Positions 26,415 to 57,131 of a DNA stretch of 64,000 nt are shown here, one piece after another. The DNA comes from Candidatus Levybacteria bacterium RIFCSPHIGHO2_02_FULL_40_18 (GTDB lineage Bacteria > Patescibacteriota > Microgenomatia > Levybacterales > GWA1-39-11): NCBI GenBank assembly GCA_001782235.1, contig MFOC01000007.1:251909-315908 (forward strand), given 5' to 3'. Position numbers and translations under genes: made by a program. The notes beneath the pieces are model-generated. The model saw only the letters and a list, made by a program, of their open reading frames with translations. It searched no databases and was not told the origin of the DNA. Numbering within the stretch: position 1 is the stretch's first letter; every line of letters starts with the position of its first letter.

Positions 26415-26419
26415 GATTG

Positions 26420-26428: not shown

Positions 26429-26441
26429 ACGTTTTAGTTAC

Positions 26442-30951: not shown

Positions 30952-30954
30952 AAA

Positions 30955-34767: not shown

Positions 34768-34927
34768 TTACTAATTAACCTAATCAATCCCCAATTTAAA
34801 AAATTCCCAATTGTTTAGAAATTAGGAATTAGGTCAATTAGACAATTTGCAAACTATACTGCACAACGGAGGAATTAAGGATAGATAGCTAGTAATTTAG
34901 GGAAAAATGAGGTAAAATACGTCAATT

Positions 34928-35350
34928 ATGCCAACACTTAATCAGTTAGTAAGAAAAGGTAGATCACGAAAGTCAAAAAAAGTTAAAGCAACGGGGTTGC
35001 GTACTATCTTTAATGCCAAAATAAGGCGCTATACTCAAGTTCCTTCTCCTCAAAAAAGAGGAGTAGTAACTTTGGTTCGTACAATGACGCCTAAAAAGCC
35101 GAATTCGGCTCTCCGAAAAGTTGCAAGAATCAAACTATCAAATAGAGAGGAAGTTACTGCCTATATTCAAGGCATTGGACACAATTTAGCAGAACACGGG
35201 ATAGTTCTGGTTCGCGGCGGCCGTGTTAAGGACTTGCCGGGAGTAAAATACCATTTGGTTCGCGGCAAGTTTGATCTTGCAGGAGTTGAAGGCCGTAGAA
35301 GTTCAAGAAGCCGTTACGGCACAAAGCGCCCTGGCGCAGCCGCAGCATAG
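34928..35350 (+). CDS. rpsL: 30S ribosomal protein S12
   Basis: Typical S12 sequence ([11 protein letters not shown]). Confidence 0.95.
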
Positions 35351-35355
35351 AAAAT

Positions 35356-35832
35356 ATGGCAAGGGGAGGAGCAAATTTTAAAAGGAGAGTACCACAAACT
35401 GACCCAATTTATGGGAACGTTTTAGTGGCAAAATTCATAAATCGCTTAATGCGCAGTGGTAAGAAGTCAGTTGCTCAAAGAGTTGTTTATGATGCATTCG
35501 AGCTACTTAAAAAAGAGGGTGACCCCGTAAATATTTTTGAACAGGCAATTGATACTGTAGGTCCAAAGCAAGAAGTTAAAGCAAGAAGGATTGGGGGGGC
35601 AGCATATCAGGTTCCGCAAGAAGTTCGCGGTCCAAGAAGGGTAGCTTTAGCAATCCGCTGGATTCTTGAAGCAGCAGCAAAAAGACCAACAGCAGAACAC
35701 AAATCATTCGCATCAAAGCTTGCAGCAGAACTTAAGGATGCCTCTCAAAATCTCGGAGAAGCAGTAAGGAAAAGGGACATCGCCCACCGCATGGCCGACG
35801 CAAATAAGGCTTTTGCTCACTTCCGCTGGTAA
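35356..35832 (+). CDS. rpsG: 30S ribosomal protein S7
   Basis: Typical S7 sequence. Follows rpsL. Confidence 0.95.
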   Translation: MARGGANFKRRVPQTDPIYGNVLVAKFINRLMRSGKKSVAQRVVYDAFELLKKEGDPVNIFEQAIDTVGPKQEVKARRIGGAAYQVPQEVRGPRRVALAIRWILEAAAKRPTAEHKSFASKLAAELKDASQNLGEAVRKRDIAHRMADANKAFAHFRW

Positions 35833-35841: not shown

Positions 35842-36942
35842 TTAAATTTCGATTATTTGTTTGGGGGATTTCGTGAGCCTTTCGAGTTTGTTCGATAATA
35901 AATAATCGTCTTCTATTCGGACGCCGCCAAAACCGGGGGTATAAATTCCGGGTTCGATTGTAAAGATCATATCTCGAACAAGTTTGCCTTTCGATTTTGG
36001 TGAAATTCTAGGCTCCTCGTGAACTTCAAGTCCGACTCCATGCCCAAGTCCGTGAGGAATCTGTTCGAAACCGTTCGAGACAATGTAAGCGTTCGCAATT
36101 TTGGCCACCTCGAGAGCTTTTATAGGGGACCTTTGGTGGTATGATCGATCATACCATTTTTTATTGATGCATTCGATTACTTTACGTTGGGCTGTTTGAA
36201 CACTTTCGTACATTTTGCGAGCCTTAGTCGATGCCCTTTTCGTGAGTAGAGTTCTTGTCATGTCAGAACAATAGCCATTTACTTTTGCTCCAAAATCTAA
36301 AAGGACGAACTGATCTTTATTCGTTAGTTTTTTATTCGAAGTCTTGTGATGGGGAATCGCAGAGTTTGGGCCAAATGCGACGATTGGATCAAACGCTAAT
36401 TCGCCTCCATCCTCTTTTATAAACTTCTCGATTTTCCATGCAATTTCTTTTTCGGTTACCCCTGTTTTTATAAGTTTTCGAACTACTTTGAACGTTTTAT
36501 CCGTTAATCGACAAGCTGCTTTAATATTTTTTATTTCTTCAGGATCTTTCACGGCTCTTAAGTTTTCTACAATTTGCTCGACCAAAACGAATTTCTTCCC
36601 GGTTTTATTTCTAAACTTTTTAAGCTCTGCTACGGTGAAGTTGTGTTCGATACCGACTTTTTTTGCCCTCGAAGCCTTAACCTTTTTGAATAGTTCGGTA
36701 TGCAAAAATACACGAACACCTTTCGGCAATTTAGTTCGAACTCCCTCAATATATCTTCCGTCAGTAAATAGCATTATGTTCGTTTCGGCTACAAACAAAT
36801 ATGCCTCCCGTTCTCGCCTTGAAAAAATCGAATAGCCGGTTAAATAGGCAATATTTACAGCACCCGAAATAAGCAGTCCATAAATCTTATTCGGATTTAA
36901 ACTTTTCTGAAGAACTTTCAAACGCTTTTCAAACATAGGCAC
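35842..36942 (-). CDS. Xaa-Pro aminopeptidase / M24B family metallopeptidase
   Basis: Metal ligand motifs DFGAKVNGYCSDMTRT, HGLGHGVGLEVHE and GVRIEDD. Creatinase-N-like N-terminal domain. Confidence 0.75.
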   Translation of the reverse strand: MPMFEKRLKVLQKSLNPNKIYGLLISGAVNIAYLTGYSIFSRREREAYLFVAETNIMLFTDGRYIEGVRTKLPKGVRVFLHTELFKKVKASRAKKVGIEHNFTVAELKKFRNKTGKKFVLVEQIVENLRAVKDPEEIKNIKAACRLTDKTFKVVRKLIKTGVTEKEIAWKIEKFIKEDGGELAFDPIVAFGPNSAIPHHKTSNKKLTNKDQFVLLDFGAKVNGYCSDMTRTLLTKRASTKARKMYESVQTAQRKVIECINKKWYDRSYHQRSPIKALEVAKIANAYIVSNGFEQIPHGLGHGVGLEVHEEPRISPKSKGKLVRDMIFTIEPGIYTPGFGGVRIEDDYLLSNKLERLTKSPKQIIEI

Positions 36943-36944: not shown

Positions 36945-37514
36945 TTATAGCATTTTACCCTGAACGAGAGTAGGTTTTGAAAATGTAGCCCAAACTGGTC
37001 CCATTGGATCTTGGGGAAGTATAACATCTGCTTCTTCGATGTTAACGAACCCAAATCGTGCATAGGTTCTTCCAGGCCATGTTGATCTTGCCGCGCCTAC
37101 AATATCATGGCTTATATTATAAGTTTGGAAAAATTGTTTGTAATTGTCAGAAGGTTGTTCCCATATATCTACTATGGAGGTAACGTGTTTTCTCATTTCT
37201 TCTAAATACATTAACGCAAATCCTACAAATTCTGCTGCAAACATATCCGGGTGACGTTGTCGGTCATTAAGTCTTCGAGTAATTAATACAAACTCTGCAA
37301 CCCCTTCATCTACGGCTGCTCCCATTACAAAAGTTTCATCACCATGATCGGTAATTGAAATGGAACTGTCATCAAAGAGATACTCCATTCTTCTCCCAGA
37401 TTCTGCAGTGAACTCGCCTGATTTCTTTCCTCCCAATGATAGCTCGAGCAATTGAGCAAATGGAATTCCTTTTTCACCAGCAACAAAGGGGTAAGTAACC
37501 ATTTCAACAGCCAT
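36945..37514 (-). CDS. hypothetical protein (possible GNAT-like fold, unverified)
   Basis: 189-aa ORF co-directional and contiguous with the M24 peptidase gene. No confident motif. Confidence 0.4.
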   Translation of the reverse strand: MAVEMVTYPFVAGEKGIPFAQLLELSLGGKKSGEFTAESGRRMEYLFDDSSISITDHGDETFVMGAAVDEGVAEFVLITRRLNDRQRHPDMFAAEFVGFALMYLEEMRKHVTSIVDIWEQPSDNYKQFFQTYNISHDIVGAARSTWPGRTYARFGFVNIEEADVILPQDPMGPVWATFSKPTLVQGKML

Positions 37515-37578
37515 AGGCGGATTATAGCTGTTCGATAGGACTTAGGGCAAGCATAGGATTGCAGGAGGAGTGTTTTTT

Positions 37579-37587
37579 TGGTAAAAT
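37579..37587 (+). promoter_or_regulatory. extended -10 TGG-TAAAAT upstream of fusA
   Basis: Recurring motif, with a ~45-nt leader to the likely start. Confidence 0.4.
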
Positions 37588-37632
37588 AGCTTGATCTGTT
37601 GGAAAGGCAGCAGATTTTTTTTGACCAAAATT

Positions 37633-39744
37633 ATGGCCTTACAAGATAGAAATGTACCGTTAGATAAGATTCGCAATATTGGAATTATTGCGCATATTGA
37701 TGCCGGGAAGACAACCACAACAGAGAGAATTCTTTATTACACCGGTAAAACCTATAAAATCGGCGAGGTTCATGAGGGCGCTGCGGTTATGGACTGGATG
37801 GACCAGGAGCGCGAGCGTGGAATCACTATTGTATCCGCTGCCACAACCACATTTTGGAAAGATGTCAGGATAAACATCATTGACACGCCCGGCCACGTTG
37901 ATTTTACCGCCGAGGTTGAAAGGTCACTTCGAGTTCTTGACGGAGCGGTTACTGTCCTTGACGCTGAGGAAGGAGTTCAATCTCAATCTGAGACTGTTTG
38001 GAGACAGGCGGATAAGTATAAGGTTCCAAGAATTTGCTTCATCAATAAAATGGATAAGCTTGGTGCGGACTTTGAGAAAACAGTCCAATCAATTATTGAT
38101 AAATTGGGTGCGAATCCTGTTGTTATAGGATTTCCAATTGGACGCGAACAAGACTTCAAAGGAATTTATCATTTACTTGAACAAAAGTCATATATTTGGT
38201 CAGGCGAGGAGCTTGGCGCAAAGTTTGAAGTAAAAGATGAGATCCCGGCCGGGATGGAAGAAACAATTAAGAAATATCGAGAGCAATTGGTTGAAAAAAT
38301 TGCTGAGACAGATGATAAATTACTCGAAAAATATCTTAACGGACAAGAAATCTCAAATGACGAATTGAAAGCAGCTCTTCGAGCCGCTGTTATTACGTAT
38401 AAAGTTGTTCCTATTTTTGCCGGGTCTTCACTCAGAAATAAAGGAGTTCAGCCACTCCTTGATGCTGCTGTTGATTATCTTCCATCACCTCTTGATTTAA
38501 AAGAAGTGAAAGGCGTAAATCCAAAAACAAATGCTGAGGAAATTCGTCAGTTAACACCAGAGGAATCATTTACAGGGTTTGCCTTTAAAGTTCAAATTGA
38601 TCCTCACGTTGGGAAACTGACATATGTTCGAATTTATTCAGGGAAAATGGCCTCCGGTTCTTACGCATACAATTCTAGCAAGGAGATAAAAGAGCGTGTC
38701 GGCCGACTTTTACTCATGCACGCAAACAATCGCGAGGAAGTTAAAGAGGCGTTTGCCGGAGAGATAGTTGCCATTGTTGGACTAAAAGACACTTCAACCG
38801 GAGACACGATTTGTGACGAATCAAAACCAATTCTGCTTGAAAAGATAATCTTTCCAGAACCGGTTATATCGCTTGCTATTGAACCAAAAACAAAGAGCGA
38901 TCAAGAAAAACTTGGACTTGCCTTGAAAAAACTTATGGATGAGGATCCAACATTTTCTGTAAAAACGGATCATGAGACCGGACAAACCATTATTTCCGGT
39001 GTAGGAGAGCTCCAGCTTGAAGTGAAAGTTGAGACAATGAAGCGGGAATTCGGAGTTCAGGCAAATGTAGGAGCACCGCAGGTTGCCTACAAAGAAACTA
39101 TCGAACAAGAAGGACAAGGTGAAGGAAAATACATTCGTCAAACTGGAGGCCGCGGTCAATACGGTCACTGTTTCTTAAGAGCCGAACCTCTAGGTCGAGG
39201 TGAGGGAATTGAGTTTGTCAACGCAATCAAAGGAGGAGCAATCCCCCAAGAATTTATTCCATCGGTTGAAAAGGGAACGCGGGAGGCTATGGACAATGGA
39301 GTTTTACTCGGATACCCGGTCACAGATATCAAGGTAACTCTTTATGACGGAACGTTTCATGAAGTCGACTCTTCAGACATAGCATTTAAGATCGCAGGTT
39401 CCATGGCATTTCAGGCTGCCGCCAAAAAAGCAAAATTAAAATTACTTGAGCCTATTATGAAAGTTGAGGTTACAACCCCGGAAGAATTTATGGGAACTGT
39501 AATTGGAGATCTCTCGTCAAAAAGAGCACAAATCGTTGGATCAAGCGAGCGTGGAAATGTTCGAATAATCTTAGCAAATGTTCCACTAGCCGAGCTTTCT
39601 GGATACGCAACAACCCTTCGCTCATTAACCCAGGGTCGGGCAATCCCCTATGTTGAACCAAGCCACTACGAAGAAGTTCCTCAAAATATAGTCCAGGCAA
39701 TGCTCGCCAAAAGTACATTTACCGGCCGCATCACCGCCCAATAA
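37633..39744 (+). CDS. fusA: elongation factor G
   Basis: [17 protein letters not shown] and other EF-G domains. Start set at MALQDRN. The track start at 37591 is an over-extension. Confidence 0.95.
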
Positions 39745-39850
39745 TTTTCTTTGTACTTTTGCGCCGCCAAAAGTACCAAAATCTCTCGCCATGTCTCGTC
39801 TCATGCTTTAAATGTTTGAGTTTGTGTCGGCACCCACCGCTGTCTTCGGG

Positions 39851-39896
39851 CTTCGCCCTTGCAGCCGGGCTCCCTCACTTTGTTCAGTCCGCCCCC
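39851..39896. repeat. GC-rich intergenic repeat copy 2
   Basis: CTTCGCCCTTGCAGCCGGGCTCCCTCACTTTGTTCAGTCCGCCCCC. About 85% identical to 26358-26401. Confidence 0.6.
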
Positions 39897-40004
39897 TGAC
39901 GCACTCACTCAACTTCTCATCCACTCAGCGTTCGAAATGGCGAAATTTAAGAAGCGCCGAATCACCGCCCAGTAAAATTTCCCAAAGTGTGGTAAAATAA
40001 GGGC

Positions 40005-40211
40005 ATGACAAAGATAGTTACTGATCCAAAAATCATGCTTGGGAAACCAACTATCGAAGGTACGCGAATTACTGTTGAACAAGTATTGAGACTTCTATCT
40101 CAAAAATTAACTGTGGATGAAATTATAGATGATTTTCCTCAACTTAAAGAAGCTGATATTCGAACAGCTGTAGATTATGCTGCCAAAATGGTCGCTAAGC
40201 CACAGATATAA
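40005..40211 (+). CDS. DUF433-family putative antitoxin
   Basis: 68 aa with the PTIEGTRITVEQVL..DEIIDDFPQL pattern of DUF433. Preceded by TGG-TAAAAT (39990-39998). Confidence 0.55.
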   Translation: MTKIVTDPKIMLGKPTIEGTRITVEQVLRLLSQKLTVDEIIDDFPQLKEADIRTAVDYAAKMVAKPQI

Positions 40212-40219
40212 ATCCTCGA

Positions 40220-40570
40220 ATGAAGTTTATAGCGGATGAAAACCTCGGAATACGAGTCCCAAAGTATTTAAAAAGTTTAGGTTTCGATATTGTTGCCGTT
40301 AAAGAAATTGCACAGGGTAGACTTGATGCTGATATTCTAGATATAGCGAATAAAGAGCAGAGGATTCTTATTACGCTTGACAAAGATTTCGGCGAGCTAG
40401 TTTTTAAACAAAAATTAATTCATTCAGGTGTAATCCTGCTTCGATTAAAAGATGAATCAGTTGAAAACAAAGAGAAAGTATTACTCAGGGAATTAAAATC
40501 GAAAAAGAAATTCGAAAATAAATTTACAGTAATTTCAGACCCTAAGAAGGGCCGCATAACCTCCCAATAA
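40220..40570 (+). CDS. DUF5615-family (PIN-like) putative toxin
   Basis: 116 aa starting MKFIADENL, the typical DUF5615 N-terminus. Lies 8 nt after the DUF433 gene. Confidence 0.5.
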   Translation: MKFIADENLGIRVPKYLKSLGFDIVAVKEIAQGRLDADILDIANKEQRILITLDKDFGELVFKQKLIHSGVILLRLKDESVENKEKVLLRELKSKKKFENKFTVISDPKKGRITSQ

Positions 40571-40575
40571 AACAG

Positions 40576-41076
40576 CTACGTTCCAAAAGGGACGGTTGCG
40601 ACATATTTCCATTCGCTAGGGGCACCAGTAGTTTGAGTTATTAGAAACTTGTCTATGACAAATGAGGTAGAAGGAATCATTAAGGTGGAAGCTGCTTTTC
40701 CGCGAGTAAGCATATCATGATCTCCATATAACAAACTCATATGGGGCATGAATACGTTGTTCTCCATATCAAATAATTTTTTAGCGTCAATATTTAACTG
40801 CATCAGTTTGGCAGTTGAATTTATTCTTACAAAAACTGATTGAAAGTATGTTGTACTGAAAGAAACCGGTCCGAGACTTAGTTCCAGTTTGCTTAAACCT
40901 GTAGCTAGTTTTTTAACCTTTTGTTCCAGTTCCGATAGATCTGCTTCTATTTCTCCCAATAAAGTCATATGAGGGTCAAACTGGGGTCCTTGATACCTTT
41001 TAGATAATTGATCAATCGTGGCTTTTATTTGATAATAAATCGGATCAGGCGGAATAGTCCAAATACTATATTTCAT
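40576..41076 (-). CDS. 2H phosphoesterase superfamily protein (LigT/cyclic phosphodiesterase-like)
   Basis: Two H-x-[TS]-x motifs (PHMTLL, PHMSLL) about 85 aa apart. Start chosen at MKYSIW, with TATAAT 7 nt upstream on the minus strand. Confidence 0.5.
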   Translation of the reverse strand: MKYSIWTIPPDPIYYQIKATIDQLSKRYQGPQFDPHMTLLGEIEADLSELEQKVKKLATGLSKLELSLGPVSFSTTYFQSVFVRINSTAKLMQLNIDAKKLFDMENNVFMPHMSLLYGDHDMLTRGKAASTLMIPSTSFVIDKFLITQTTGAPSEWKYVATVPFGT

Positions 41077-41162
41077 ATGATAATTATAATAAACAACAAT
41101 AAAATTTCGCAACTAAACAGACGGCATTGACATTCAGAAAACTTTTGTTCTAAACTGGTTGT

Positions 41163-41498
41163 ATGATAAGCATGAGGAGGAATCAGGAGCTTTTTTGGCT
41201 GCTTGAGATTCTTCTATTAACACCGGTAGCTTTGTTTTGGATGGGAGTGGTTTCCCTGATGCTTGGCTCAGGCGATCTTTTCAACGCGGTAGTTGGACAA
41301 CCGTACTCAATGCTTAAGGCCGCTCTCGTAACGCTTATATGTCCGGCGGCCGCAGCTTGGTTTGCAATTGAATATTTGCGAGAAAATAAGCGAGAAAAAG
41401 GCTCGGCGCACGATATTGCAACAGCAATTATTGGTGTAAGTCTTGCAACAATTGGTTTTGTTCTTGTCTACCTTTTTGTCGAAAATAGACCCCGCTAG
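41163..41498 (+). CDS. small polytopic membrane protein
   Basis: 111 aa with 3 predicted TM helices. Confidence 0.4.
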   Translation: MISMRRNQELFWLLEILLLTPVALFWMGVVSLMLGSGDLFNAVVGQPYSMLKAALVTLICPAAAAWFAIEYLRENKREKGSAHDIATAIIGVSLATIGFVLVYLFVENRPR

Positions 41499-41557
41499 CC
41501 CTTCGCACAAATCCTAAGCACTAAATCCTAAATTCTAAATAATATATCAATATATAT

Positions 41558-41640
41558 TTAGAAAATAGTTATTGGAAAATGGAAATTAGTAATGGAAATA
41601 TGGAAAATAGAAAATAGTTAAAATAAAAATACCAATTTCT
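41558..41640. repeat. MITE-like element copy C (left arm plus truncated right arm)
   Basis: TTAGAAAATAGTTATTGGAAAATGGAAATTAGTAATGGAAA...CCAATTTCT. Confidence 0.55.
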
Positions 41641-41676
41641 TATTGACAGAATTTTGGTATTCGAATAAAGGATTTG

Positions 41677-41685
41677 TGTTAAAAT
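41677..41685 (+). promoter_or_regulatory. extended -10 TGT-TAAAAT 9 nt upstream of the murB ATG
   Basis: Recurring motif. Implies a near-leaderless mRNA. Confidence 0.45.
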
Positions 41686-41694
41686 CAGAGCGTT

Positions 41695-42654
41695 ATGAAG
41701 GTTTATGCTGATTTTGAGATTCGAAACGAACTTTGGTACAAGATTGGAGGAAAAGTACGATATCTTATCGATGTTGAAAGTAAAGAAGACATTAAGAAGG
41801 CATTCGAGTTATTAAAAAAGGAGAAAATCAAAAAATTCTTTTTTTTGGGCTTAGGTTCAAATTTGATATTTAAAGATGAGTATTTTGCCGGGGCAGTAAT
41901 TCGTTTTTTGCCAAGCTCAAATCCGATTCGCCTGATTCGTCCACATATTATAGAAGCTGATGCAGGGGTAGTATTGGATGATGTCATAAATTTTGCATTT
42001 GACCATAACCTTGTTGGCCTTGAGTGGGCAGGAGGATTGCCCGGGCAGGTAGGCGCTGCCATTCGCGGAAATGTTGGGGCTTTTGGTAGTGAAATAAAAG
42101 ATAGCGTAAAGGAAGCGGAGGTTTTTGAGATCATAAATAATAAACCAAGATTTAAGGTCTTGCGACGATTTGAATTGCAATTCTCATACAGAAATTCGAT
42201 TGTCAAAAAAAAGAAGCTTGGGGTGATAAACGCACAATTTAGGTTGACTTCGGCAGATCAGGGGGTCGTAAACCGTGCGCGGCAAACCTACCTTAACAAT
42301 ATTGAATATCGAAAAATTCGCCATCCCCTCGAGTACCCAAACTGCGGCAGTATATTTAAAAATATAAGCGATCCTGCCCATATTCAAAAAATTCTTGAGG
42401 TCTATCCTGATCTTGAAGAGAAAATCATAAGAGAATGGCATGGCAAAGTAGCCATGGGTTACTTAATAAAGAGACTTGATCTCTCAGGATATCGTGTCGG
42501 AGATGCGCTTGTGTCTCCAAAGCACTGCAATTTTATCGTGAATCTTGGCAGCGCAAAAGCATCAGATGTTCTATCAATTATTAAATTAATCCAAAATAAG
42601 TTTGCGGAGACATTCGATTTTGTTCCAGAGGTAGAGGTTGAAATCATCCAATAG
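41695..42654 (+). CDS. murB: UDP-N-acetylenolpyruvoylglucosamine reductase
   Basis: FAD-binding LGLGSNL motif and a MurB C-terminal domain. Confidence 0.75.
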   Translation: MKVYADFEIRNELWYKIGGKVRYLIDVESKEDIKKAFELLKKEKIKKFFFLGLGSNLIFKDEYFAGAVIRFLPSSNPIRLIRPHIIEADAGVVLDDVINFAFDHNLVGLEWAGGLPGQVGAAIRGNVGAFGSEIKDSVKEAEVFEIINNKPRFKVLRRFELQFSYRNSIVKKKKLGVINAQFRLTSADQGVVNRARQTYLNNIEYRKIRHPLEYPNCGSIFKNISDPAHIQKILEVYPDLEEKIIREWHGKVAMGYLIKRLDLSGYRVGDALVSPKHCNFIVNLGSAKASDVLSIIKLIQNKFAETFDFVPEVEVEIIQ

Positions 42655-42655
42655 A

Positions 42656-43270
42656 CTACTCTTTTCCGATTGTGACCACTGTATCGGCGCTGTTTGACTC
42701 CGAAAGATCAGCGGATGTTGTGCCAATAGTATAATTTGAGGAGAGGTCCTTTTTTATCAGATCTAAAAATTTCGAGCTCGCGCTTTTTATCTGAATTGTA
42801 GTTTTTGCGTAATCAAAATTATCTGCGTTTCCAACTTGAACAACGTTATATCCAAGTCCTTCAAGTAGATCCGATGCCTTTTTACCTACGCCCGCTGCCC
42901 CGCTTCCATTTAATACTTGTATCGAGAGCTTGCTTCTGTCAAGACCGGTACTTTTATCAATTGGATTGACTGTGGGTTTTGGAGTAGGCGTGTTTGTGGG
43001 TTTTTTGGTTGGAGATGTTTGCGGTTCCTCTGTTGGAGCCGGTTCTTCGGTTGGAATTGCTTCAATTGTTGGTGCCGGGGTAGGGGTGGGTTCGGTCTTA
43101 CTTGCTCCCCCAAAAAACCTAGTTACTCCAAAAATTACAAGCCCTAAAACAACAATTAAAATAATGATAGTAGCGTACCTTTTAAGATTGGTGTTCGATC
43201 TTGGGCGATTAATGCGACTCTCAAATTCACGTGGCGCTTGGAAAACTTCTTCCTTTTGCTCCTCTTCCAT
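42656..43270 (-). CDS. LytR_C domain membrane protein with Pro/Thr-rich linker
   Basis: TM helix, PTPTPAP linker and a C-terminal LytR_C-like domain (LSIQVLNGSGAAGVGKKASDLLEGLGYNV). Start chosen at MEEEQ. Confidence 0.5.
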   Translation of the reverse strand: MEEEQKEEVFQAPREFESRINRPRSNTNLKRYATIIILIVVLGLVIFGVTRFFGGASKTEPTPTPAPTIEAIPTEEPAPTEEPQTSPTKKPTNTPTPKPTVNPIDKSTGLDRSKLSIQVLNGSGAAGVGKKASDLLEGLGYNVVQVGNADNFDYAKTTIQIKSASSKFLDLIKKDLSSNYTIGTTSADLSESNSADTVVTIGKE

Positions 43271-43417
43271 TGCCAATATAATAGCACTAAATTTCGATTT
43301 TGCAAGTGTTAACTTGCTAAATTCGCTCGGGGTCCTACCACTTCGCAGTTTCCGCACGTTGAAAGTGACGCTCAGCTTCCTCAAGTGGTTATACAATCTT
43401 TATCCCCAGTCTTCGCT

Positions 43418-43484
43418 AAGTGAACGCAAGCATATAAAGTCCTCTAATTCAAAAGTTTATTCTAAGCTTGCGTTCAATTCACTT
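43418..43484. repeat. long imperfect hairpin between the convergently arranged minus-strand genes
   Basis: TAAGTGAACGCAAGC followed by a 34-nt loop and GCTTGCGTTCAATTCACTT. Confidence 0.4.
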
Positions 43485-43517
43485 TCAAGTGGAAAACCGC
43501 TCCGTGGTGCCCCCCCA

Positions 43518-43904
43518 TTAATTACTGGCTCGGACCTGGACTAATTGGAAGAAGTTGCCGTCCGGATCAACAAATGTCGCAATAAGACCATATCCCTCAA
43601 TATGGTAAATGTCTTGTTGAACCTTGACCTTTGCTCTTTTTAACCTTTTTGCCTCTTTTTCAATGTCGTCAACTTCAAAATTTATAATCATTCGTTCAGG
43701 ATTTTTATTTTTACCCTTAACTTTCGAATGATCGTTTATATAAAAGCCTGACCCTCCTTTTAATGCAAATTCGTAGCCTTTTTCTCCTTCTTCCCCATAT
43801 TCAAATTCCATGGTTTGTTCGAGTCCTACAACCTCTCTATAGAACTTTGCCAGTTTAGTAGCGTTAGCGCTTCCTAATAATACACTCTCTATTCCTTTTA
43901 TCAT
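43518..43904 (-). CDS. glyoxalase/bleomycin-resistance (VOC) family protein
   Basis: 128 aa with a beta-alpha-beta-beta-beta pattern and conserved VDPDGN near the C-terminus. Confidence 0.5.
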   Translation of the reverse strand: MIKGIESVLLGSANATKLAKFYREVVGLEQTMEFEYGEEGEKGYEFALKGGSGFYINDHSKVKGKNKNPERMIINFEVDDIEKEAKRLKRAKVKVQQDIYHIEGYGLIATFVDPDGNFFQLVQVRASN

Positions 43905-43965
43905 TATTTATCACCACCTTGCTTGTAAGTGATAGTTTAAGTATGTAGAATAATACTACTCACTT

Positions 43966-44478
43966 ATGAATAAAACAATACTCATTTTAATAACTGTTTT
44001 TGTAGTTGGGGGGATAGGTGCTTTCTTACTTTTGAATTCGAATCGAACATCAAATGAGTTGAAAAGCCAAAACAAATCTTTAGAGACCTCAAGAAAAATT
44101 GAGGGATACCAGGGGAATGTTTTGGCAGGCAATGTTTCGCCCTTTTTAGAATTTAATAAAGCTGACTACGAAAGGGCAAAATCACAAGGCAAGATTATTC
44201 TGCTAGATTTTTATGCTAATTGGTGCCCTGTCTGCCGGGCTGAGGAACCCGCGATACATTCAGGTTTCGATGAATTAAATGATCCAAACATTGTTGGTTT
44301 TCGAGTTAGCTTTAATGATTCGGATACCGATTCAGATGAAAAAGCTTTGGCACAAGAATTCAATATTCCTTATCAACATACAAAAGTAATACTTAAAAAT
44401 GGCGTCGAAGTATCCCGTTCAAATGAACAGTGGACAAAAGAAGACCTAATTGGAGCTGTCAATAAAGAACTCGAGTAG
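43966..44478 (+). CDS. membrane-anchored thioredoxin-like protein
   Basis: N-terminal TM helix and WCPVC active site. Confidence 0.6.
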   Translation: MNKTILILITVFVVGGIGAFLLLNSNRTSNELKSQNKSLETSRKIEGYQGNVLAGNVSPFLEFNKADYERAKSQGKIILLDFYANWCPVCRAEEPAIHSGFDELNDPNIVGFRVSFNDSDTDSDEKALAQEFNIPYQHTKVILKNGVEVSRSNEQWTKEDLIGAVNKELE

Positions 44479-44490
44479 TATGAAAATTTT

Positions 44491-44620
44491 TTAGAAAATA
44501 GTTATTAGAGAATGGAAATTAGTAATGGAAATTTGAAAATAGAAAATAGATAAAAACACCAATTTCTAATATCTAATTTCTATTACCATTTTCTTACTTC
44601 TTACAACCATTTTCTATTTT
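44491..44620. repeat. MITE-like element copy D, ending 6 nt before the next ATG
   Basis: Both arms present. Confidence 0.6.
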
Positions 44621-44626
44621 TAACTT

Positions 44627-46393
44627 ATGATTGTTCTGCTTCTTTTTGCGTTTCTCTCGGGTTTAGTAACAATTGCGGCTCCTTGCATTTGGCCGCTTTT
44701 ACCAATTATCCTTTCATCCTCGATTCTTGGCAGCGATCATAGAAGACCCCTTGGAATAACAATTGGGATTTTAATTAGTTTCGGAATTCTGACACTCACA
44801 ATCTCTTACCTTGTAAGCGTATTTCGCTTTGATCCAAGTATATTAAGATACATTGCCGTCGCAGTTCTTCTGTTTTTGGGCGTTGCAATGGTTGTCCCCC
44901 TATTGACTCGAATTGTTGAAGGATGGGTCTCGCGATTCGCTGGAAGATTCGGCCAAGCTTCCGGCCAACAAAACCCTGATTTTCTACACGGCCTTATTAC
45001 CGGTCTCTCATTAGGCGTTGTTTGGACACCATGTGCTGGGCCAATTTTGGCGGCAATCGCAACGCTTGCGGCAACGAGAGCTGTTAATTCTGAAATAGTT
45101 TTAGTGACAATTGTTTATCTTGTAGGTGTAGGAATTCCTCTGTTTATTTTCGCCTGGGGAGGACAAAGAATAGTGAGCAAAACTCGAGTATTTAATAAAT
45201 ATACCGGCATTGTTCAGAAATTCTTTGGAATTATTATAATCCTAACAGCACTTTTAATCGCAACGAATTACGATAAGGTTCTTCAAGCAAAATTACTTGA
45301 TGTGTTTCCAGCTTATGCAAAGTTTGTGGTGGATCTTGAAAGCAATGATGTAGTGAAAAAACAATTAGATCTAATTCGAAAGGATAAAAAAGACGACGAT
45401 ATGGTCGGTAAACCTTTTAGTCCAATGCCGGTCAAAAAACAAAATGATTTATTTAACGCAAATTTTCAGGCTCCGGAGCTTGCGGGTATTTCGAATTGGT
45501 TAAATTCGAACAAGCCCTTAACCCTTTCAGAACTTCGCGGAAAAGTAGTTTTGATAGATTTCTGGACGTACACATGCATTAATTGCATCCGAACTTTGCC
45601 GCATGTTACCTCTTGGTATGAGAAATATAAAGACAAGGGGTTTGTGGTTATAGGAGTGCATACTCCAGAGTTTGAATTTGAGAAGAAGACAGAAAACGTT
45701 GAGGCCGCAATCAAACAATACGGTATAAATTACCCTGTTCCTCAAGACAATGATTATAAAACGTGGGATGCTTTTAATAATCGATATTGGCCGGCAAAGT
45801 ACTTAATAGATAAGGACGGGATTGTTCGATATGTCCATTTTGGGGAAGGGAAATATGAAGAGACGGAAAAAGCAATTAGACTGCTCCTTGAAGAAGCGGG
45901 TTCGCAGATTAAGGAAGATATGTCAGGCCTTCCGGATGAAACGCCACGTGCTCGCAATTCGCCTGAAACTTATCTTGGTTCGCAGCGAATGAAATTTTAC
46001 TTTCCAAATGGCAGACTCGATAACGGAACATATAAAGATCTTGTAACCCATTCGAATATTCCGACAAATTCATTCACTTTAGGCGGAGATTGGGAGATTA
46101 TGGATGAATATTCGACTAGTGGTCAGAATGCGGTATTAGAATATCGATTTTCCGCAAGCAAAGTATTTTTGGTAATGAGACCAGTAGGTGGAGACGTTGA
46201 GGCTGTAAAGGTTTTTCTCGACGGAAAACTCGTCGATGGTTTAGGTTCAGGGTCGGACCCTGAGCGTGGGGTTGTAAAGATTGATTCGGATAGACTTTAC
46301 AATCTAATTGATCTTGCCGGAAATCGTGGCGAGTATTTACTTAGGCTCGAATTTTCCCCCAATATCGAAATCTTCGCTTTCACTTTCGGCTGA
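44627..46393 (+). CDS. CcdA/DsbD-type thiol-disulfide transporter fused to a C-terminal thioredoxin-like (TlpA/redoxin) domain and a further beta-rich domain
   Basis: CcdA motifs AAPCIWPLLP and WTPCAGPIL in the TM core. C-terminal WTYTCINCIRTLP CxxC motif. Confidence 0.6.
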   Translation: MIVLLLFAFLSGLVTIAAPCIWPLLPIILSSSILGSDHRRPLGITIGILISFGILTLTISYLVSVFRFDPSILRYIAVAVLLFLGVAMVVPLLTRIVEGWVSRFAGRFGQASGQQNPDFLHGLITGLSLGVVWTPCAGPILAAIATLAATRAVNSEIVLVTIVYLVGVGIPLFIFAWGGQRIVSKTRVFNKYTGIVQKFFGIIIILTALLIATNYDKVLQAKLLDVFPAYAKFVVDLESNDVVKKQLDLIRKDKKDDDMVGKPFSPMPVKKQNDLFNANFQAPELAGISNWLNSNKPLTLSELRGKVVLIDFWTYTCINCIRTLPHVTSWYEKYKDKGFVVIGVHTPEFEFEKKTENVEAAIKQYGINYPVPQDNDYKTWDAFNNRYWPAKYLIDKDGIVRYVHFGEGKYEETEKAIRLLLEEAGSQIKEDMSGLPDETPRARNSPETYLGSQRMKFYFPNGRLDNGTYKDLVTHSNIPTNSFTLGGDWEIMDEYSTSGQNAVLEYRFSASKVFLVMRPVGGDVEAVKVFLDGKLVDGLGSGSDPERGVVKIDSDRLYNLIDLAGNRGEYLLRLEFSPNIEIFAFTFG

Positions 46394-46550
46394 TTTGATA
46401 CTTGACCCATTCGACTCCCGTTTTAACCTCTCGACTTCTCTCGGTGCAGTCAAGTTAGTATTTTACTACTTGACGATTAGGTAAAAATTTTGTATGATCT
46501 ATTCCGCACCTGAAATTCAGAGGGTGTTTTTATTTGCAAAATTCGATAAT

Positions 46551-47732
46551 ATGGCTGGAAAATTTGAAAGAACAAAACCACACATTAATATTGGAACTAT
46601 TGGTCACGTAGACCATGGTAAAACCACACTGACCTCTGCTATTACTATGGCTTTAGCCAAAAAAGGCATGGCCGAAGCCAAGAAATATGAAGATATTGAT
46701 AATGCCCCTGAGGAAAAAGCCCGCGGAGTCACCATTAACATTTCCCACCAAGAATACGAAACAGAAAAAAGACACTACGCTCATATTGATGCTCCTGGGC
46801 ACGCAGATTACATCAAAAACATGATTACGGGAGCAGCTCAGATGGACGGAGCAATTCTTGTAGTCTCAGCTGCAGACGGTCCAATGCCTCAAACAAGAGA
46901 ACACATTCTTCTTGCTCGCCAGGTTGGAGTTCCGGCAATTGTGGTTTTTCTTAATAAGGTTGATATGGTTTCAGATCCTGAGCTTATTGATCTTGTTGAA
47001 ATGGAAGTTCGCGAACTCTTGACTAAGTACCAATACCCGGGAGCTGATGTGCCTATTATTAAAGGTTCGGCTCTTAAGGCTACTCAAGGTGACGCTGAGG
47101 CTGAGGCACAAATCATGGAGCTTATGAACAAGGTTGACGAATATATCCCAACCCCAACTCGCGATATCGACAAACCGTTCTTAATGCCGGTTGAGGATGT
47201 TTTTTCAATTAAAGGCCGTGGAATAGTTGTAACAGGCCGTGTTGAACGAGGACAGACAAAAGTCAATGACACAATAGAGATTGTTGGAATTAAAACAACA
47301 AAATCAACGGTTATCACAGGGATTGAGATGTTTAGAAAAAGCCTTGATGAGGCTCAAGCCGGGGATAACGCCGGACTTCTCCTTCGCGGAATTGAAAAGA
47401 AAGACGTTGAAAGAGGACAAGTTATTGCAAAACCAGGTTCAATTACCCCACACACAGAATTTGAAGCAGAGGTTTATGTTTTGACAAAAGAAGAAGGTGG
47501 ACGCCACACACCGTTCTTCACAGGATACCGCCCGCAATTTTATATTCGAACCACAGACGTAACCGGCGAAATTAAACTTCAGGAGGGCGTTGAAATGGTC
47601 ATGCCAGGAGACAATACCAAGATGAACGCAACATTGATTGTTCCAATCGCACTTGAAGAAGGAATGAGATTTGCAATTCGCGAGGGTGGTAAGACAGTAG
47701 GCGCAGGCGTAATTACTAAGGTTACTAAATAA
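46551..47732 (+). CDS. tuf: elongation factor Tu
   Basis: [10 protein letters not shown] and DAPGHADY motifs. Start set at [11 protein letters not shown]. Confidence 0.95.
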
Positions 47733-47778: not shown

Positions 47779-47802
47779 CCTACTGTTGAAGTAGGTTTTT
47801 TG
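47779..47802 (+). terminator. intrinsic terminator after tuf
   Basis: CCTACT-gttga-AGTAGG followed by TTTTTTGTTT. Confidence 0.6.
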
Positions 47803-47808
47803 TTTATT

Positions 47809-48120
47809 ATGGCAACGAAAGGAAGGATCAGAGTACGTTTAAAGTCATATGATTCAAGAATAATTGACTCAACATGTCAGCAAATCCTTGATACAGCTAT
47901 TCGCACAGGCGCAAAAGTTGCCGGTCCCATCCCTTTGCCAACCAAGCGAATGGTACTTGCGGTAAATAAATCCCCCTTTATAGATAAAGATGCTCGTGAG
48001 CACTTTGAGCTCAAAACCCACAAGAGGTTAATTGATATCCTAAATCCCACCGATAATACCATCGAATCATTGATCCATTTAGATCTCCCTGCAGGCGTCG
48101 ATGTCGAAATCAAGATGTAG
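47809..48120 (+). CDS. rpsJ: 30S ribosomal protein S10
   Basis: Begins MATKGRIRVRLKSYD. Confidence 0.9.
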   Translation: MATKGRIRVRLKSYDSRIIDSTCQQILDTAIRTGAKVAGPIPLPTKRMVLAVNKSPFIDKDAREHFELKTHKRLIDILNPTDNTIESLIHLDLPAGVDVEIKM

Positions 48121-48286: not shown

Positions 48287-49240
48287 ATGCAATCTTTAAT
48301 TGGCAAGAAAATTGATCAAACACAAGGGTTTTTAGAGGATGGGACGCGCGTTCCGCTCTCAATTATTTCCGTGGCAGGAAATGTCGTGATACAGGTCAAG
48401 ACAGGCGACCACGAGGGATATAATTCAATTCAACTTGGATTTGGAACTTGGAAGCGCCCAACCAAACCAATGGCAGGACACATTAAAAAAGCGGGGTTAA
48501 AAAAAATGCCTCGCTTTTTTCGTGAAATAAGGGCAGACGAAGCGCCAGCCTCGCCGAGTCTAGGCGGGCCGAATCTTGCACCAGGTTCGGCGATTTTAGT
48601 TTCAGAAGTTTTCGAGCCCGGCGACATAGTTGATGTTACTGGAATTTCAAAGGGCAAAGGTTTTGCAGGAGTTGTTAAGCTTCATGGATTTCATGGAGGT
48701 CCCAAAACTCACGGGCAATCTGACAGGCATAGGGCCCCGGGAGCAATCGGTTCAGGAACAACTCCGGGTAGAGTTTACAAAGGCAAAAGAATGGCAGGGA
48801 GAATGGGAAATGAGCGCGTGACTATCAAGAACCTTGAGGTTTTAGATGTGAAGGATGATACGATTTTCGTTCGAGGCCTAATTCCTGGAGTAAAAGGTTC
48901 GATCGTTACCATTACAAAAGTAGGGAAGAATAAGAAATTTAAGCCACTATGGGGCGGACTGAGCCCTGGCTCCGGCGAGGGCGAAGTAGCCGTGCGAGGA
49001 GAGCGAGACAGCGGTGGAACTGAAGAGTCGGATGTTCAGACGGCAGTAGATAATGTTTCCGAAGCTGAAAAAGCTGTCAAGACACCAGAGGAAGTAGAAA
49101 CAGCGCAAGACACAGTTGCTTCGGTTGCAAATTCGAGTGAAGGAAAACCTGCAGCCACTGACGGCACTGAGGAATCCGCTGAAAACACTGAAAAAAGTTC
49201 GCCAGGAAAGCAAGAGGAAGGAGAAGGTAATGCCAGTTAA
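48287..49240 (+). CDS. rplC: 50S ribosomal protein L3 with ~100-aa acidic C-terminal extension
   Basis: L3 core followed by an E/T/S-rich tail. The tail contains the 43-nt GC-rich module shared with the pnp tail. Confidence 0.85.
   Translation: MQSLIGKKIDQTQGFLEDGTRVPLSIISVAGNVVIQVKTGDHEGYNSIQLGFGTWKRPTKPMAGHIKKAGLKKMPRFFREIRADEAPASPSLGGPNLAPGSAILVSEVFEPGDIVDVTGISKGKGFAGVVKLHGFHGGPKTHGQSDRHRAPGAIGSGTTPGRVYKGKRMAGRMGNERVTIKNLEVLDVKDDTIFVRGLIPGVKGSIVTITKVGKNKKFKPLWGGLSPGSGEGEVAVRGERDSGGTEESDVQTAVDNVSEAEKAVKTPEEVETAQDTVASVANSSEGKPAATDGTEESAENTEKSSPGKQEEGEGNAS
48974..49017 (+). repeat. GC-rich in-frame module (family b) in the rplC tail
   Basis: GGCGAGGG...GCGAGGAGAGCGAGACAGCGGTGG. About 88% identical to pnp 9914-9953. 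Confidence 0.6.
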
Positions 49241-52593: not shown

Positions 52594-52616
52594 CAGCTAG
52601 CTGTTGGCTGTTGGTA

Positions 52617-52657
52617 GTTAGCTAATAGCCAAACGCTAAAAGCTAACAGCTGAAATT
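52617..52657 (+). promoter_or_regulatory. conserved leader module upstream of rplP
   Basis: GTTAGCTAATAGCCAAACGCTAAAAGCTAA(C)AGCT, near-identical to 53586-53627. Confidence 0.5.
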
Positions 52658-53071
52658 ATGTTAACGCCTAAAAGAACAAAATACAGAAAACAATTTAAGC
52701 CAAAAATACAGGGGCAAATAGCTTTTTCCGGCAACCGCCTCTCCTTTGGAGAGTTTGGTCTAAGAGCTAGCTCTTCAGGTAATGTGACAAGCCGCCAGAT
52801 AGAAGCGGCTCGAAAGGCTATTACTCACTTTACGAAAAGAGGAGGAAGAATCTGGATTAGAATTTTCCCTGATAGGCCAGTTACAAAAAAGCCGCCCGAA
52901 ACCCGTATGGGCGGAGGGAAAGGGGATATTTATGAATATGTTGCGCCTGTGAAGATAGGGAGAGTGCTTTTTGAAATGGGAGGAATACCTGAGGTTGTTG
53001 CTCGCGAAGCACTAAGACTTGCTTCACATAAATTGCCGGTTGCGAGCGTATTTATAAAAAGAAGCAATTAA
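52658..53071 (+). CDS. rplP: 50S ribosomal protein L16
   Basis: Typical L16. Confidence 0.95.
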
Positions 53072-53074
53072 AAT

Positions 53075-53311
53075 ATGAAAAAGAACGAACTTGTTGATTT
53101 AAAAGGGAAAACAACTGATGAGCTTAGGAGACTTCTTTTAGAGAAAAGAGAGGAACTCGGAAAGCTTAAAATTGATCTTTCGCGCGCAAAGAGTAAAGAT
53201 GTAAACCAAGTAAGAAACGAAAGAAAAGACATAGCAAGAATACTAACAATATTATCTATTAAGGAAGGAGAGCAGTCGCGGTCCCGCCAAATGCGGGATG
53301 AGGCTATGTAA
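53075..53311 (+). CDS. rpmC: 50S ribosomal protein L29
   Basis: Conserved order. Helical and K/E-rich. Confidence 0.85.
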   Translation: MKKNELVDLKGKTTDELRRLLLEKREELGKLKIDLSRAKSKDVNQVRNERKDIARILTILSIKEGEQSRSRQMRDEAM

Positions 53312-53313
53312 TT

Positions 53314-53562
53314 ATGGCTAAAAAGACTTTTATCGGAAAAGTAGTATCTAACAAGATGCAGAAGACTGTGATTGTTCAAATTGAGCGATTGGTTCGACAC
53401 CCAGTTTACAAGAAAATCCTTAAAAGAACAACAAAAATTAAGGCTGACACTAATAATTTTGAAGTCGGCACTGGTCAGTCTGTGAAGATAGAGCAAGCAA
53501 GGCCAATGTCTCGTGATAAACATTTTAAGGTGGTAGAGGTGCTAAATGAGGAGAAAAAATAG
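53314..53562 (+). CDS. rpsQ: 30S ribosomal protein S17
   Basis: Typical S17. Confidence 0.9.
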   Translation: MAKKTFIGKVVSNKMQKTVIVQIERLVRHPVYKKILKRTTKIKADTNNFEVGTGQSVKIEQARPMSRDKHFKVVEVLNEEKK

Positions 53563-53585
53563 CCCTTGGCTATTGGCTGTTGGCA

Positions 53586-53627
53586 GTTAGCTAATAGCCA
53601 AACGCTAAAAGCTAATAGCTAAATAAT
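53586..53627 (+). promoter_or_regulatory. conserved leader module upstream of rplN (near-identical to 52617-52657)
   Basis: GTTAGCTAATAGCCAAACGCTAAAAGCTAATAGCTAAATAAT. Confidence 0.5.
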
Positions 53628-55286: not shown

Positions 55287-55345
55287 ATAGCTATTGGCCG
55301 TTAGCTATTAGCTAATAGCCAAAAGCCAAAAGCAAATAGGCAAAT

Positions 55346-57129: not shown

Positions 57130-57131
57130 TC

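Follow-up and report, generated by a model that had tools for sequence, protein, structure and literature searches.

The DNA analysed here is a 64,000-nucleotide stretch of contig MFOC01000007.1 from Candidatus Levybacteria bacterium RIFCSPHIGHO2_02_FULL_40_18 (hereafter the window), and this report concerns its str cluster (rpsL–rpsG–fusA–tuf) and, in particular, the 6.8 kb block between fusA and tuf (positions 39745–46550). The rpsL and rpsG genes (34928–35832) are the intact 5′ half of the cluster. Downstream of them the canonical contiguous operon is lost: rpsG and fusA have 1.7 kb of opposite-strand genes between them, fusA and tuf are 6.7 kb apart, and the S10 cluster resumes after tuf (Table 1). 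Independently assembled ENA and JGI contigs match the window at 100% identity across 12–21 kb, and the arrangement is therefore not an assembly artefact.

The genes that an initial annotation of this DNA had named between fusA and tuf are all present where it placed them, as judged by Pfam, NCBIfam and PDB searches: a DUF433/DUF5615 toxin–antitoxin (TA) pair, a 2H phosphoesterase, a small membrane protein of 111 residues (mem111), MurB, a LytR_C protein, a VOC/glyoxalase protein, a membrane thioredoxin and a CcdA–thioredoxin fusion of the DipZ type. The second insert that it described, an M24 aminopeptidase and a hypothetical protein of 189 residues (hyp189) on the minus strand between rpsG and fusA, was likewise recovered. 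The window contains no tRNA genes, and a search of its whole length against Rfam at gathering thresholds returned zero RNA families.

Table 1. Genes, copies of the fusA terminus, promoter-like sites and repeats of the str region (positions in the window; ORF, open reading frame).
Feature	Position	Strand	Evidence or remark
rpoC	30970–34767	+	ORF listing and profile searches
Promoter-like TGAGGTAAAATA	34908–34919		Before rpsL
rpsL	34928–35350	+	Pfam Ribosom_S12_S23, 1.4e-31
rpsG	35356–35832	+	Pfam Ribosomal_S7, 2.1e-50
M24 (Xaa-Pro type) aminopeptidase	35842–36942	−	Pfam Peptidase_M24, 8.9e-60, and Creatinase_N
hyp189 (189-aa ORF)	36945–37514	−	No family match in Pfam, NCBIfam or PDB
Promoter-like TTTGGTAAAATA	37577–37588		Before fusA
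fusA (EF-G)	37591–39744	+	Pfam EF-G domains
Copy 1 of fusA terminus, GCCGCATCACCGCCCAATAA	39725–39744	+	Terminal 20 nt of fusA; GRITAQ, stop
GC-rich non-coding segment	39745–39955	+	211 nt, between copies 1 and 2
GC-rich repeat core	39858–39895		92% copy at 26364–26401
Copy 2, GCCGAATCACCGCCCAGTAA	39956–39975	+	2 mismatches; in frame with fusA; RRITAQ, stop
DUF433 antitoxin (COG2442)	40005–40211	+	Pfam DUF433, 5.8e-22, 77.7 bits (cut-off 23.6)
DUF5615 PIN-like toxin (COG4634)	40220–40570	+	Pfam DUF5615, 5.5e-24, 84.6 bits (cut-off 23.8)
Copy 3	40551–40570	+	2 mismatches; last codons and stop of the DUF5615 toxin; GRITSQ, stop
2H phosphoesterase, CPDase family	40576–41076	−	PF07823, 7.4e-16, 58.9 bits (cut-off 21)
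Promoter-like TTGACA-18-TAAACT	41127–41156		Before mem111
mem111	41163–41498	+	
AT-rich imperfect palindrome, ~130 nt	41548–41650 and 44491–44620		Other copies from about 7154, 17979 and 18013
murB	41695–42654	+	Pfam MurB_C, FAD_binding_4; NCBIfam TIGR00179, 180 bits (cut-off 144.5)
LytR_C-domain membrane protein	42656–43396	−	Pfam
VOC/glyoxalase-fold protein	43518–43904	−	Pfam
Membrane-anchored thioredoxin, WCPVC	43966–44478	+	Pfam Thioredoxin, 2.2e-11
DipZ-type fusion	44627–46393	+	Pfam DsbD_TM (CcdA), redoxin (CxxC) and Thioredoxin_10, all three domains
Sigma70-like TTGACG-17-TATGAT	46470–46498		Before tuf
tuf	46494–47732	+	Pfam
rpsJ	47800–48120	+	S10 cluster resumes; S10/spc genes follow

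Gene order around fusA in related genomes

Loci were collected by an EF-G search, 80 from species-representative genomes and 80 from metagenomes, each reaching 10 kb either way, and the window proteins were compared with all of them by tblastn. Relatedness was gauged by EF-G identity, the titles of several, if not many, of the contig records from metagenome-assembled genomes being unreliable. The nearest relatives are Patescibacteria/Levybacteria-type contigs with EF-G identities of 87, 85, 82 and 80%, followed by many at 72–76%; the window genome is itself a Levybacteria-like member of the Patescibacteria/Microgenomates.

The 25 Levybacteria-like loci (EF-G identity of at least 72%) include 15 that are informative, and fusA and tuf are split or apart in 14 of these: nine have a split of 1.1–7.9 kb, five lack tuf for at least 5 kb and a single one has the genes adjacent. 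The 64–72% band (other Microgenomates-like; 59 loci, 42 informative) comprises one split, 17 loci with no tuf within 5 kb and 24 with adjacent genes, and rpsG and fusA are separated by 0.9–8 kb in 13 loci of this band. Four of the Levybacteria-like loci (L004, L008, L009 and L011) have fusA without rpsG upstream and opposite-strand genes in its place (in L004 a PilO-domain gene); in the same four, PIG-L and GH18 genes lie ahead of tuf. The splits being clade-wide, it is the lineage, and not this genome, that is characterized by an interrupted str operon.

Much of the gene order of the window recurs in these relatives. In the closest, L001 (EF-G identity of 87%, or 89% over the C-terminal 620 residues), the M24 gene lies upstream of fusA on the minus strand, and murB (77%), LytR_C (minus strand; 61% by tblastn), VOC (minus strand; 78%) and the DipZ-like gene (62%) follow downstream in the order and on the strands seen in the window. 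The fusA–tuf gap of L001 exceeds that of the window, with a DJ-1/PfpI gene after the DipZ-like gene and tuf more than 10 kb from fusA. L002 (82%) has the minus-strand M24 gene, murB and a minus-strand LytR_C gene, and murB is also found downstream of fusA in L084 (85%) and L086 (75%). The M24 gene keeps its position and strand upstream of fusA in L001, L002, L085, L086 and L167. L166 (82%) has fusA, the TA pair, mem111 adjoining murB, and LytR_C on the minus strand; the adjacency of mem111 and murB is shared with L086, and mem111 also occurs in L164. This backbone is kept across species that differ by 11–25% in EF-G.

The arrangement of the window is found in 24 contigs from other samples with identical EF-Tu (the three compared are 100% identical) and in a strain at 99.8% identity, and no presence/absence variation of the inserted genes between strains, as the initial annotation had proposed to look for, was found among them. 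Exact-protein look-ups returned the same population or the one 99.8% strain and nothing else, and the metagenome and genome scans contained no relative with an EF-G between 100% and 87% identical (89% when the C-terminal 620 residues are compared).

Only the TA pair and the 2H, thioredoxin and hyp189 genes vary among the relatives. Homology of the window with L164 and L166 stops at 40570, the toxin stop codon, and restarts at 41126/41127, at the putative mem111 promoter. The slot so delimited (40571–41126) is occupied by the 2H gene in both the window and L165 (73% identity). L164 has an Apyc1-like metallo-β-lactamase (MBL) gene there, and L166 two HAD genes together with a DDE transposase; an epimerase gene and then an MBL gene follow the TA pair in L167. 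The alternation of 2H and MBL could be a functional replacement, as both folds include cyclic-nucleotide phosphodiesterases. The L164 MBL hydrolase (426–1217) has precomputed matches to the Anti-Pycsar Apyc1 family, and that of L167 lies at 4331–5086, behind the epimerase gene. L001 and L002 have ATP-citrate lyase (ACL)-like subunits, MBL, NUDIX, DUF1361 and HhH-GPD genes where the window holds the TA pair, the 2H gene and mem111. The slot between the M24 gene and fusA contains hyp189 in the window and unrelated small ORFs in relatives, and the thioredoxin gene has no counterpart in L001, the VOC–DipZ gap of which is 166 nt.

Two observations on the relatives may be recorded here. The ACL-like gene pair lies directly 3′ of fusA in L001 (13003–16037), L002 (10241–13249), L003 (6926–8113) and L005 (4432–5619) and consists of a Citrate_bind/ATP-grasp subunit and a subunit with CoA-ligase and citrate-synthase domains, an unexpected enzyme of central metabolism for a genome of the candidate phyla radiation (CPR). 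Genes of mobile elements occur in the fusA–tuf gap of L002 (a TraG/VirD4-type coupling protein; 15973–18522) and of L166 (the DDE transposase; 4608–5504).

The block could in principle be a genomic or accessory island, recently acquired by this genome alone, that came to lie between an otherwise adjacent fusA and tuf, which is how the initial annotation had read it. Its mixed functions and strands, TA pair and internal repeats are in keeping with an island, as are the drop in GC content to 0.30–0.38 around 40000–41750 and the lack of the TA pair, the 2H gene and the thioredoxin gene at the site in L001. We nevertheless consider this origin very unlikely. The fusA and tuf genes are already apart in almost all informative Levybacteria-like loci, murB, LytR_C, VOC and DipZ are syntenic in relatives at 75–89% EF-G identity, and the arrangement is the same in all 24 contigs from other samples. 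Nor does the block have the apparatus of an island, which would include an integrase and either a tRNA gene or repeats at the outer ends: no integrase or recombinase was found by Pfam in any of its ORFs, the other large ORFs of the window yielded only a Y1_Tnp gene (18852–19526) with no demonstrated link, and no direct repeats at the outer ends of the 6.8 kb pair the end of fusA with the tuf side. Evidence of insertion beside fusA does exist, in the three copies of its terminus and in the TA pair and the 2H gene, which are absent at the site in the closest relatives, L001 and L084; most of the 6.8 kb is a conserved housekeeping backbone and not accessory DNA. Conservation of gene order across the clade, which would make the arrangement ancestral, is seen in part, in the fusA–tuf split and the backbone and not in the contents of the slots. 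The str cluster, which had been described as a hotspot of insertion in this genome, has both junctions interrupted and is prone to insertion, but on the scale of the clade and over the long term.

The fusA terminus and the toxin–antitoxin pair

The antitoxin gene precedes the toxin gene by 8 nt, both domains score above the Pfam cut-offs, and the toxin has the conserved acidic N-terminal motif IADEN and a DKDF motif. The pair is a putative type II TA module in which a DNA-binding DUF433 antitoxin would accompany a PIN-like nuclease toxin. DUF433 (COG2442) with a COG4634/Mut7-C-like PIN protein is a predicted type II TA family, of which VapBC45 of Mycobacterium tuberculosis is the named example (Makarova et al., 2009, PMC2701414; Matelska et al., 2017, PMC5499597). 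Like members of that family, the pair in the window consists of two small co-directional genes, the antitoxin leading, with DUF433 and DUF5615/Mut7-C/PIN_10 matches. It differs in its fixed site directly after fusA and in that the toxin of the window subfamily has about nine additional residues, which are a copy of the fusA 3′ end. A comparison of codon positions, with identities of 0.85–0.99 at position 2 against 0.37–0.68 at position 3, indicates that the predicted pair is under purifying selection.

The source of the additional residues is apparent in the DNA. The terminal 20-mer of fusA occurs three times in the window, always on the plus strand and within 850 bp (0 in 100 shuffles). The C-terminus of EF-G (12 residues) is native to the clade, and copies 2 and 3 therefore derive from the end of fusA. 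Copies 2 and 3 enclose a complete unit (39976–40570) comprising a promoter-like site, TGTGGTAAAATA (39988–39999), the antitoxin gene and the toxin gene; the unit is flanked by direct repeats of its target and fusA is intact, as in a target duplication. This small module is the one clear case of insertion between fusA and tuf. The segment between copies 1 and 2 contains a partial copy of the fusA end, CGCCAAAAGTAC, at 39766–39777 and an apparent 3′ remnant of a toxin gene (FEMAKFKK...), in which FEMAKFKKRRITAQ and a stop codon correspond to a toxin end of FENKFTVISDPKKGRITSQ and a stop codon. This segment is probably a decayed earlier insert. The duplication of the fusA terminus that marks the TA insertion is a new observation.

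The corresponding empty site is seen in L001, L002, L084 and L086, which carry other genes directly after fusA and have neither the TA pair nor the repeat. L166, in turn, has the same three-part structure as the window, with the fusA end, a GC-rich element, a second copy of the fusA end (FTGRITAQ and a stop codon, in frame and with no intervening stop), a promoter-like site and the TA pair. Its third copy has a deletion of 1 nt that changes the tail of the toxin to KKSRIPPSNLL, and the similarity is retained at the DNA level despite the frameshift; the tail is therefore a scar in the DNA rather than a selected peptide.

The nearest homologues of the toxin in other organisms (78–84% identity) are 116 residues long, with C-termini of KKGRITAQ, KVGRITAQ or KKRRITAQ. 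More distant homologues (107–111 residues) end before the tail and sit at unrelated sites, not beside fusA. Pairs of the tailed group lie immediately 3′ of fusA in L165, L166, L167/L168 and L169, which represent four other contexts at the species level, the tail of L167 having diverged to KITRIRKN; the L164 contig does not extend to the upstream side of its TA pair. The retention of K(K/V)(G/R)RITAQ by several toxins from different species might suggest that the EF-G-like tail (GRITAQ) is a functional mimic that directs the toxin to a partner of EF-G such as the ribosome or a protease. We regard such mimicry as very improbable and the least likely of the explanations considered: the similarity is at the DNA level and includes synonymous positions, copy 2 is untranslated, and the tail is frameshifted in L166, diverged in L167 and absent from the 107-residue relatives, in all of which the genes are still intact.

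Following fusA, the TA pair is absent from L001 (89%), L084, L002 and L086 and present in L166 (82%) and L167 (76.5%), a patchy distribution that requires several losses or some transfer. The identity of the TA proteins tracks that of EF-G, at 81–84% against 82% for L166 and 73–76% against 76.5% for L167.

The same kind of scar is found with other cargo in two further lineages. In L091 a 37 nt repeat of the fusA end (the last 21 nt exact) lies 2.0 kb downstream, around genes for GTP cyclohydrolase II and an HD-domain protein, and in L018 the fusA end with 277 nt (about 300 bp) is repeated around a DUF4143 ATPase gene. These repeats are each genome's own fusA end and differ in length. As a control, the fusA-end core has 0 matches in 729 kb upstream of fusA against six independent matches in 631 kb downstream, one of the six (in L004) being chance-like. 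The scars in L091 and L018 show that insertion at the 3′ end of fusA is recurrent, with the stop codon of the gene as the insertion point across the clade.

Such duplications are not confined to fusA. The last 21 nt of a gene recur downstream of it in only eight of 1243 genes from 85 loci, among which fusA counts twice and rpoC, rpsG and rpsJ once each. Downstream end-duplications in other CPR loci were noted in L115 (8347/8434), L130 (7754/7788), L029 (5206/5343) and L102 (12708/13133), where they involve rpoC, rpsG, rpsJ and a gene next to fusA. There are hints here of a general route for insertions or duplications after conserved genes.

Some integrative elements target the 3′ end of a tRNA gene or another conserved gene, which a duplicated end then makes whole again, leaving att repeats. 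The units in the window resemble them in being flanked by direct repeats of the target terminus, in leaving the target intact and in carrying a TA module. They differ in having no integrase, in their very small size (231 and 595 bp) and in a repeat length that varies by lineage (20, 27, 37 and about 300 nt). The varying length points to homology-dependent and not site-specific recombination, and since the repeats are the ends of each genome's own fusA, duplicative insertion through homology is favoured over a single att site.

A site-specific alternative would make the TA pair, and perhaps the GC-rich element, an integrase-less mobile cassette that is moved by a recombinase in trans, with the ~20 nt core at the fusA stop as attB and the flanking copies as attL and attR; a circular form would join the end of the toxin gene to AATTTCCCAAAGTGTGG. 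The core is present in three direct copies, and every cassette-like unit terminates in one. The core is exact (20/20) in the toxin tails of L164 and L169 and in the fusA ends of the window and L165, third positions elsewhere being ~50% identical, and the distal copy in L166 is closer to the core consensus than that genome's own fusA end. The patchy occurrence of the pair and its presence with a tail away from fusA in L170 would also suit a mobile unit. On balance we consider the cassette unlikely. There is no recombinase in or near it (the window's only transposase-like gene being Y1_Tnp), the core has no hairpin or attC-like structure, the repeats in L091 and L018 fit homology-driven duplication better, and the TA identity tracks that of EF-G. 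A search of viral contigs with a degenerate core pattern gave 21 matches, a chance-like number, none with the TA pair or fusA. Integron gene cassettes were considered and rejected: the three core regions share no hairpin on DNA folding, and no integrase was found among the Pfam-scanned ORFs of the window. The broader idea that Levybacteria-type CPR harbour a family of integrase-less mini-cassettes (the TA pair and the GC-rich element) that home to the fusA stop and are mobilized in trans is similarly doubtful, and it is only tentatively that the ~20 nt core, doubling as the last codons of EF-G and of the toxin, can be viewed as part of an unrecognized site-specific system. A wider form of the idea would be gene addition, typical of CPR, after highly expressed essential genes through duplication of the 3′ terminus.

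Proteins, promoters and repeats of the region

The functions of the backbone genes are of a housekeeping nature (peptidoglycan synthesis, the envelope and thiol–disulfide transfer across the membrane). The DipZ-type gene product has APC, TPC and CINC motifs and matches the soluble part of M. tuberculosis DipZ (PDB entry 2HYX; 7.4e-68) and CcdA (5VKV; 8.5e-11), and by its domain architecture it is a CcdA–thioredoxin fusion. It shares with M. tuberculosis DipZ (2HYX/5CYY) a CcdA-like membrane domain, a CxxC thioredoxin fold and a C-terminal Thioredoxin_10 domain, and differs in its occurrence in a CPR genome, adjoining tuf and with a second membrane thioredoxin alongside. The two proteins may together supply reducing equivalents to the cell surface. 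Both H-x-T/S motifs are present in the translated 2H protein (PHMTL and PHMSL), the PDB homologue of which is the Arabidopsis cyclic phosphodiesterase (1FSI; E = 4.3e-13); with the family hidden Markov model match, these motifs place it in the 2H phosphoesterase superfamily, and it presumably hydrolyses a cyclic phosphate substrate. The hyp189 protein belongs to an uncharacterized family (229 cluster representatives at E ≤ 1e-3) with invariant residues G16, H88, D90, A93 and W118 and a conserved HPDxFA motif; its AlphaFold2 model has a pLDDT of 95 and gives only weak, GNAT-like fold matches (TM score of 0.33–0.36). A PADLOC search with the TA pair, 2H, mem111, hyp189, VOC and the MBL proteins of the relatives gave zero matches to defence systems. 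The functions of the block genes need have no link to translation; they are probably neighbours because the operon opened long ago.

A T[GT]TGGTAAAATA-type motif lies 6–40 nt upstream of rpsL, fusA, the DUF433 gene and yceG (six matches against 0.39 expected) and a variant of it precedes murB (at about 41675), and a promoter scan placed sigma70-like sites ahead of mem111, the thioredoxin gene (43923) and tuf. Each fragment of the str cluster may therefore be its own transcription unit.

The initial annotation had also listed two elements resembling miniature inverted-repeat transposable elements (MITEs) and a GC-rich repeat. The former are AT-rich imperfect palindromes with an RNA fold z score of −4.0, and their diagnostic 18-mer has six matches in the window against 0.32 expected. 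None were found in 160 loci from other organisms, and the family, numbering about six copies in 64 kb, is species-specific; it occupies intergenic regions throughout the window and is not specific to the block. The copy at 41548 extends the mem111–murB spacer to 196 nt; L166 and L086 have spacers of about 50 and about 31 nt, respectively. With MITEs the palindromes share terminal inverted repeats, dispersed copies and absence from the orthologous site of relatives; neither a target-site duplication nor a linked transposase was recognized, and the MITE label is confirmed in part. The GC-rich repeat, which was confirmed, has two copies in the window and one in L166, the latter in the same place after fusA. 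A promoter-like TGTGGTAAAATA site follows closely downstream of each, the second copy in the window being between the pyrimidine-nucleoside phosphorylase and yceG/mltG genes. The element matches no known RNA in Rfam, and as a structured RNA or terminator it was rejected: with both strands folded, the copy after fusA folds insignificantly and only the copy at 26.3 kb is significant (z = −3.6).

Several further repeats and gene calls were noted in the window. The Y1_Tnp gene (Pfam, 3.6e-10) is IS200-like and is flanked by 35 nt direct repeats (18776–18810 and 19550–19584; 94% identical), each holding a small hairpin, with an AT-rich palindrome (17979–18132) and an HhH-GPD gene adjoining; the unit (18776–19584) could be RAYT/REP-like or IS200/IS605-like. 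A second dispersed intergenic family, of TAGCTAATAGCCAAA type and partly palindromic, has members at 11430–11495, 27386–27416, 52597–52662, 53566–53631 and 55287–55352, several of them between ribosomal protein genes of the S10/spc cluster. A hairpin-containing 39-mer that begins with AATCGGGGCCCCCATTTTGC and ends with CAAAATGGGG has three copies (30954–30992, 57128–57166 and 60635–60673), all in short intergenic gaps, such as the one separating rpoB from rpoC and those ahead of two spc/alpha genes; it could serve as a terminator or in regulation. The likely start of fusA is the ATG at 37633, other assemblies calling a protein of 703 residues, and the tuf ORF (412 residues) is ~16 codons longer than those of relatives, its true start probably lying 3′ of 46494. 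The rplC ORF (48287–49240) is unusually long, with 317 residues against 207–289 in relatives and an L3 domain match confined to residues 103–190. A minus-strand ORF of 151 residues (53068–53523) overlaps rpmC and rpsQ and was discarded as spurious. Upstream of rpoB lie pyrimidine-nucleoside phosphorylase and yceG/mltG genes (25051–27383) and not rplJ–rplL, and the rif/rpoBC region is therefore also rearranged.

Origin and significance of the fragmented cluster

Taken together, the comparisons favour, with a probability of about 0.7, an old and lineage-typical fragmentation of the rpsL–rpsG–fusA–tuf cluster in Levybacteria-like Patescibacteria over a recent accessory island. The arrangement can be modelled as three layers. 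The first, the order M24 (minus strand), fusA, mem111–murB, LytR_C (minus strand), VOC (minus strand) and the DipZ-like gene, would have been in place before the sub-clade diverged. The second would consist of sharply bounded slots between these anchors with contents that turn over between species, represented in the window by hyp189, the 2H gene, the membrane thioredoxin gene and the dispersed AT-rich palindromes. In the third, insertion of the TA pair would have duplicated the terminus of fusA, so that fusA stays intact and the toxin ORF gains C-terminal residues of EF-G. Incoming DNA with short homology to the end of fusA would most likely have entered by a single crossover of the Campbell type, or by duplicative insertion of an equivalent kind. 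Thereafter the TA pair would have been inherited mostly vertically, with some lineages losing it through recombination between the direct repeats.

Several points weigh against this reading. The gap in EF-G identity between 100 and 89% makes the events undatable and leaves strain turnover visible for one population alone. The loci reach only 10 kb each way, and tuf was not located in L001, L002 and L084; relatedness was taken from EF-G identity alone. No recombinase, circular junction or near-identical pair of empty and occupied sites was seen, and the mechanism is read from scars; the promoters are consensus matches only. The tailed TA pair of L170 lies away from fusA. The TA pairs of the window and of L166 resemble each other as closely as their EF-G proteins do, which fits vertical descent under selection and is also compatible with transfer, and the third-position identity of the pair (0.52–0.62, against 0.43–0.46 for fusA and murB) is in weak excess, from small numbers.

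The fragmentation of translation-gene clusters by insertion has a precedent: small sets of ordinary chromosomal genes were inserted ancestrally at cluster junctions, after which synteny was relaxed and the flanks drifted apart in descendants (Brandis, 2021). The same pattern of insertion followed by drift is seen across the Levybacteria-like loci. The cases of Brandis (2021) are mostly between operons and from Gammaproteobacteria and Bacilli, whereas the breaks in the window are inside the str operon (rpsG–fusA and fusA–tuf), are of a type that is near-universal in a CPR lineage and, at one junction, retain the scar of a duplicated fusA. A literature search found no paper on str-operon order in CPR. 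The region is a new instance of known processes, namely cluster fragmentation by insertion and chromosomal TA modules.

For the biology of these bacteria, it follows that the adjacency of fusA and tuf is not to be assumed in Levybacteria and many other Microgenomates, and that genes found between the two are not to be taken as island cargo. The duplicated fusA termini are a rare record, at the level of the sequence, of gene addition beside an essential and highly expressed gene without damage to it, and they account for the presence of EF-G C-terminal residues on one subfamily of toxins. If the cassette were still mobile, it would provide a simple, testable case of gene flux in organisms that have not yet been grown alone, and its target a possible neutral insertion site for CPR genetics.

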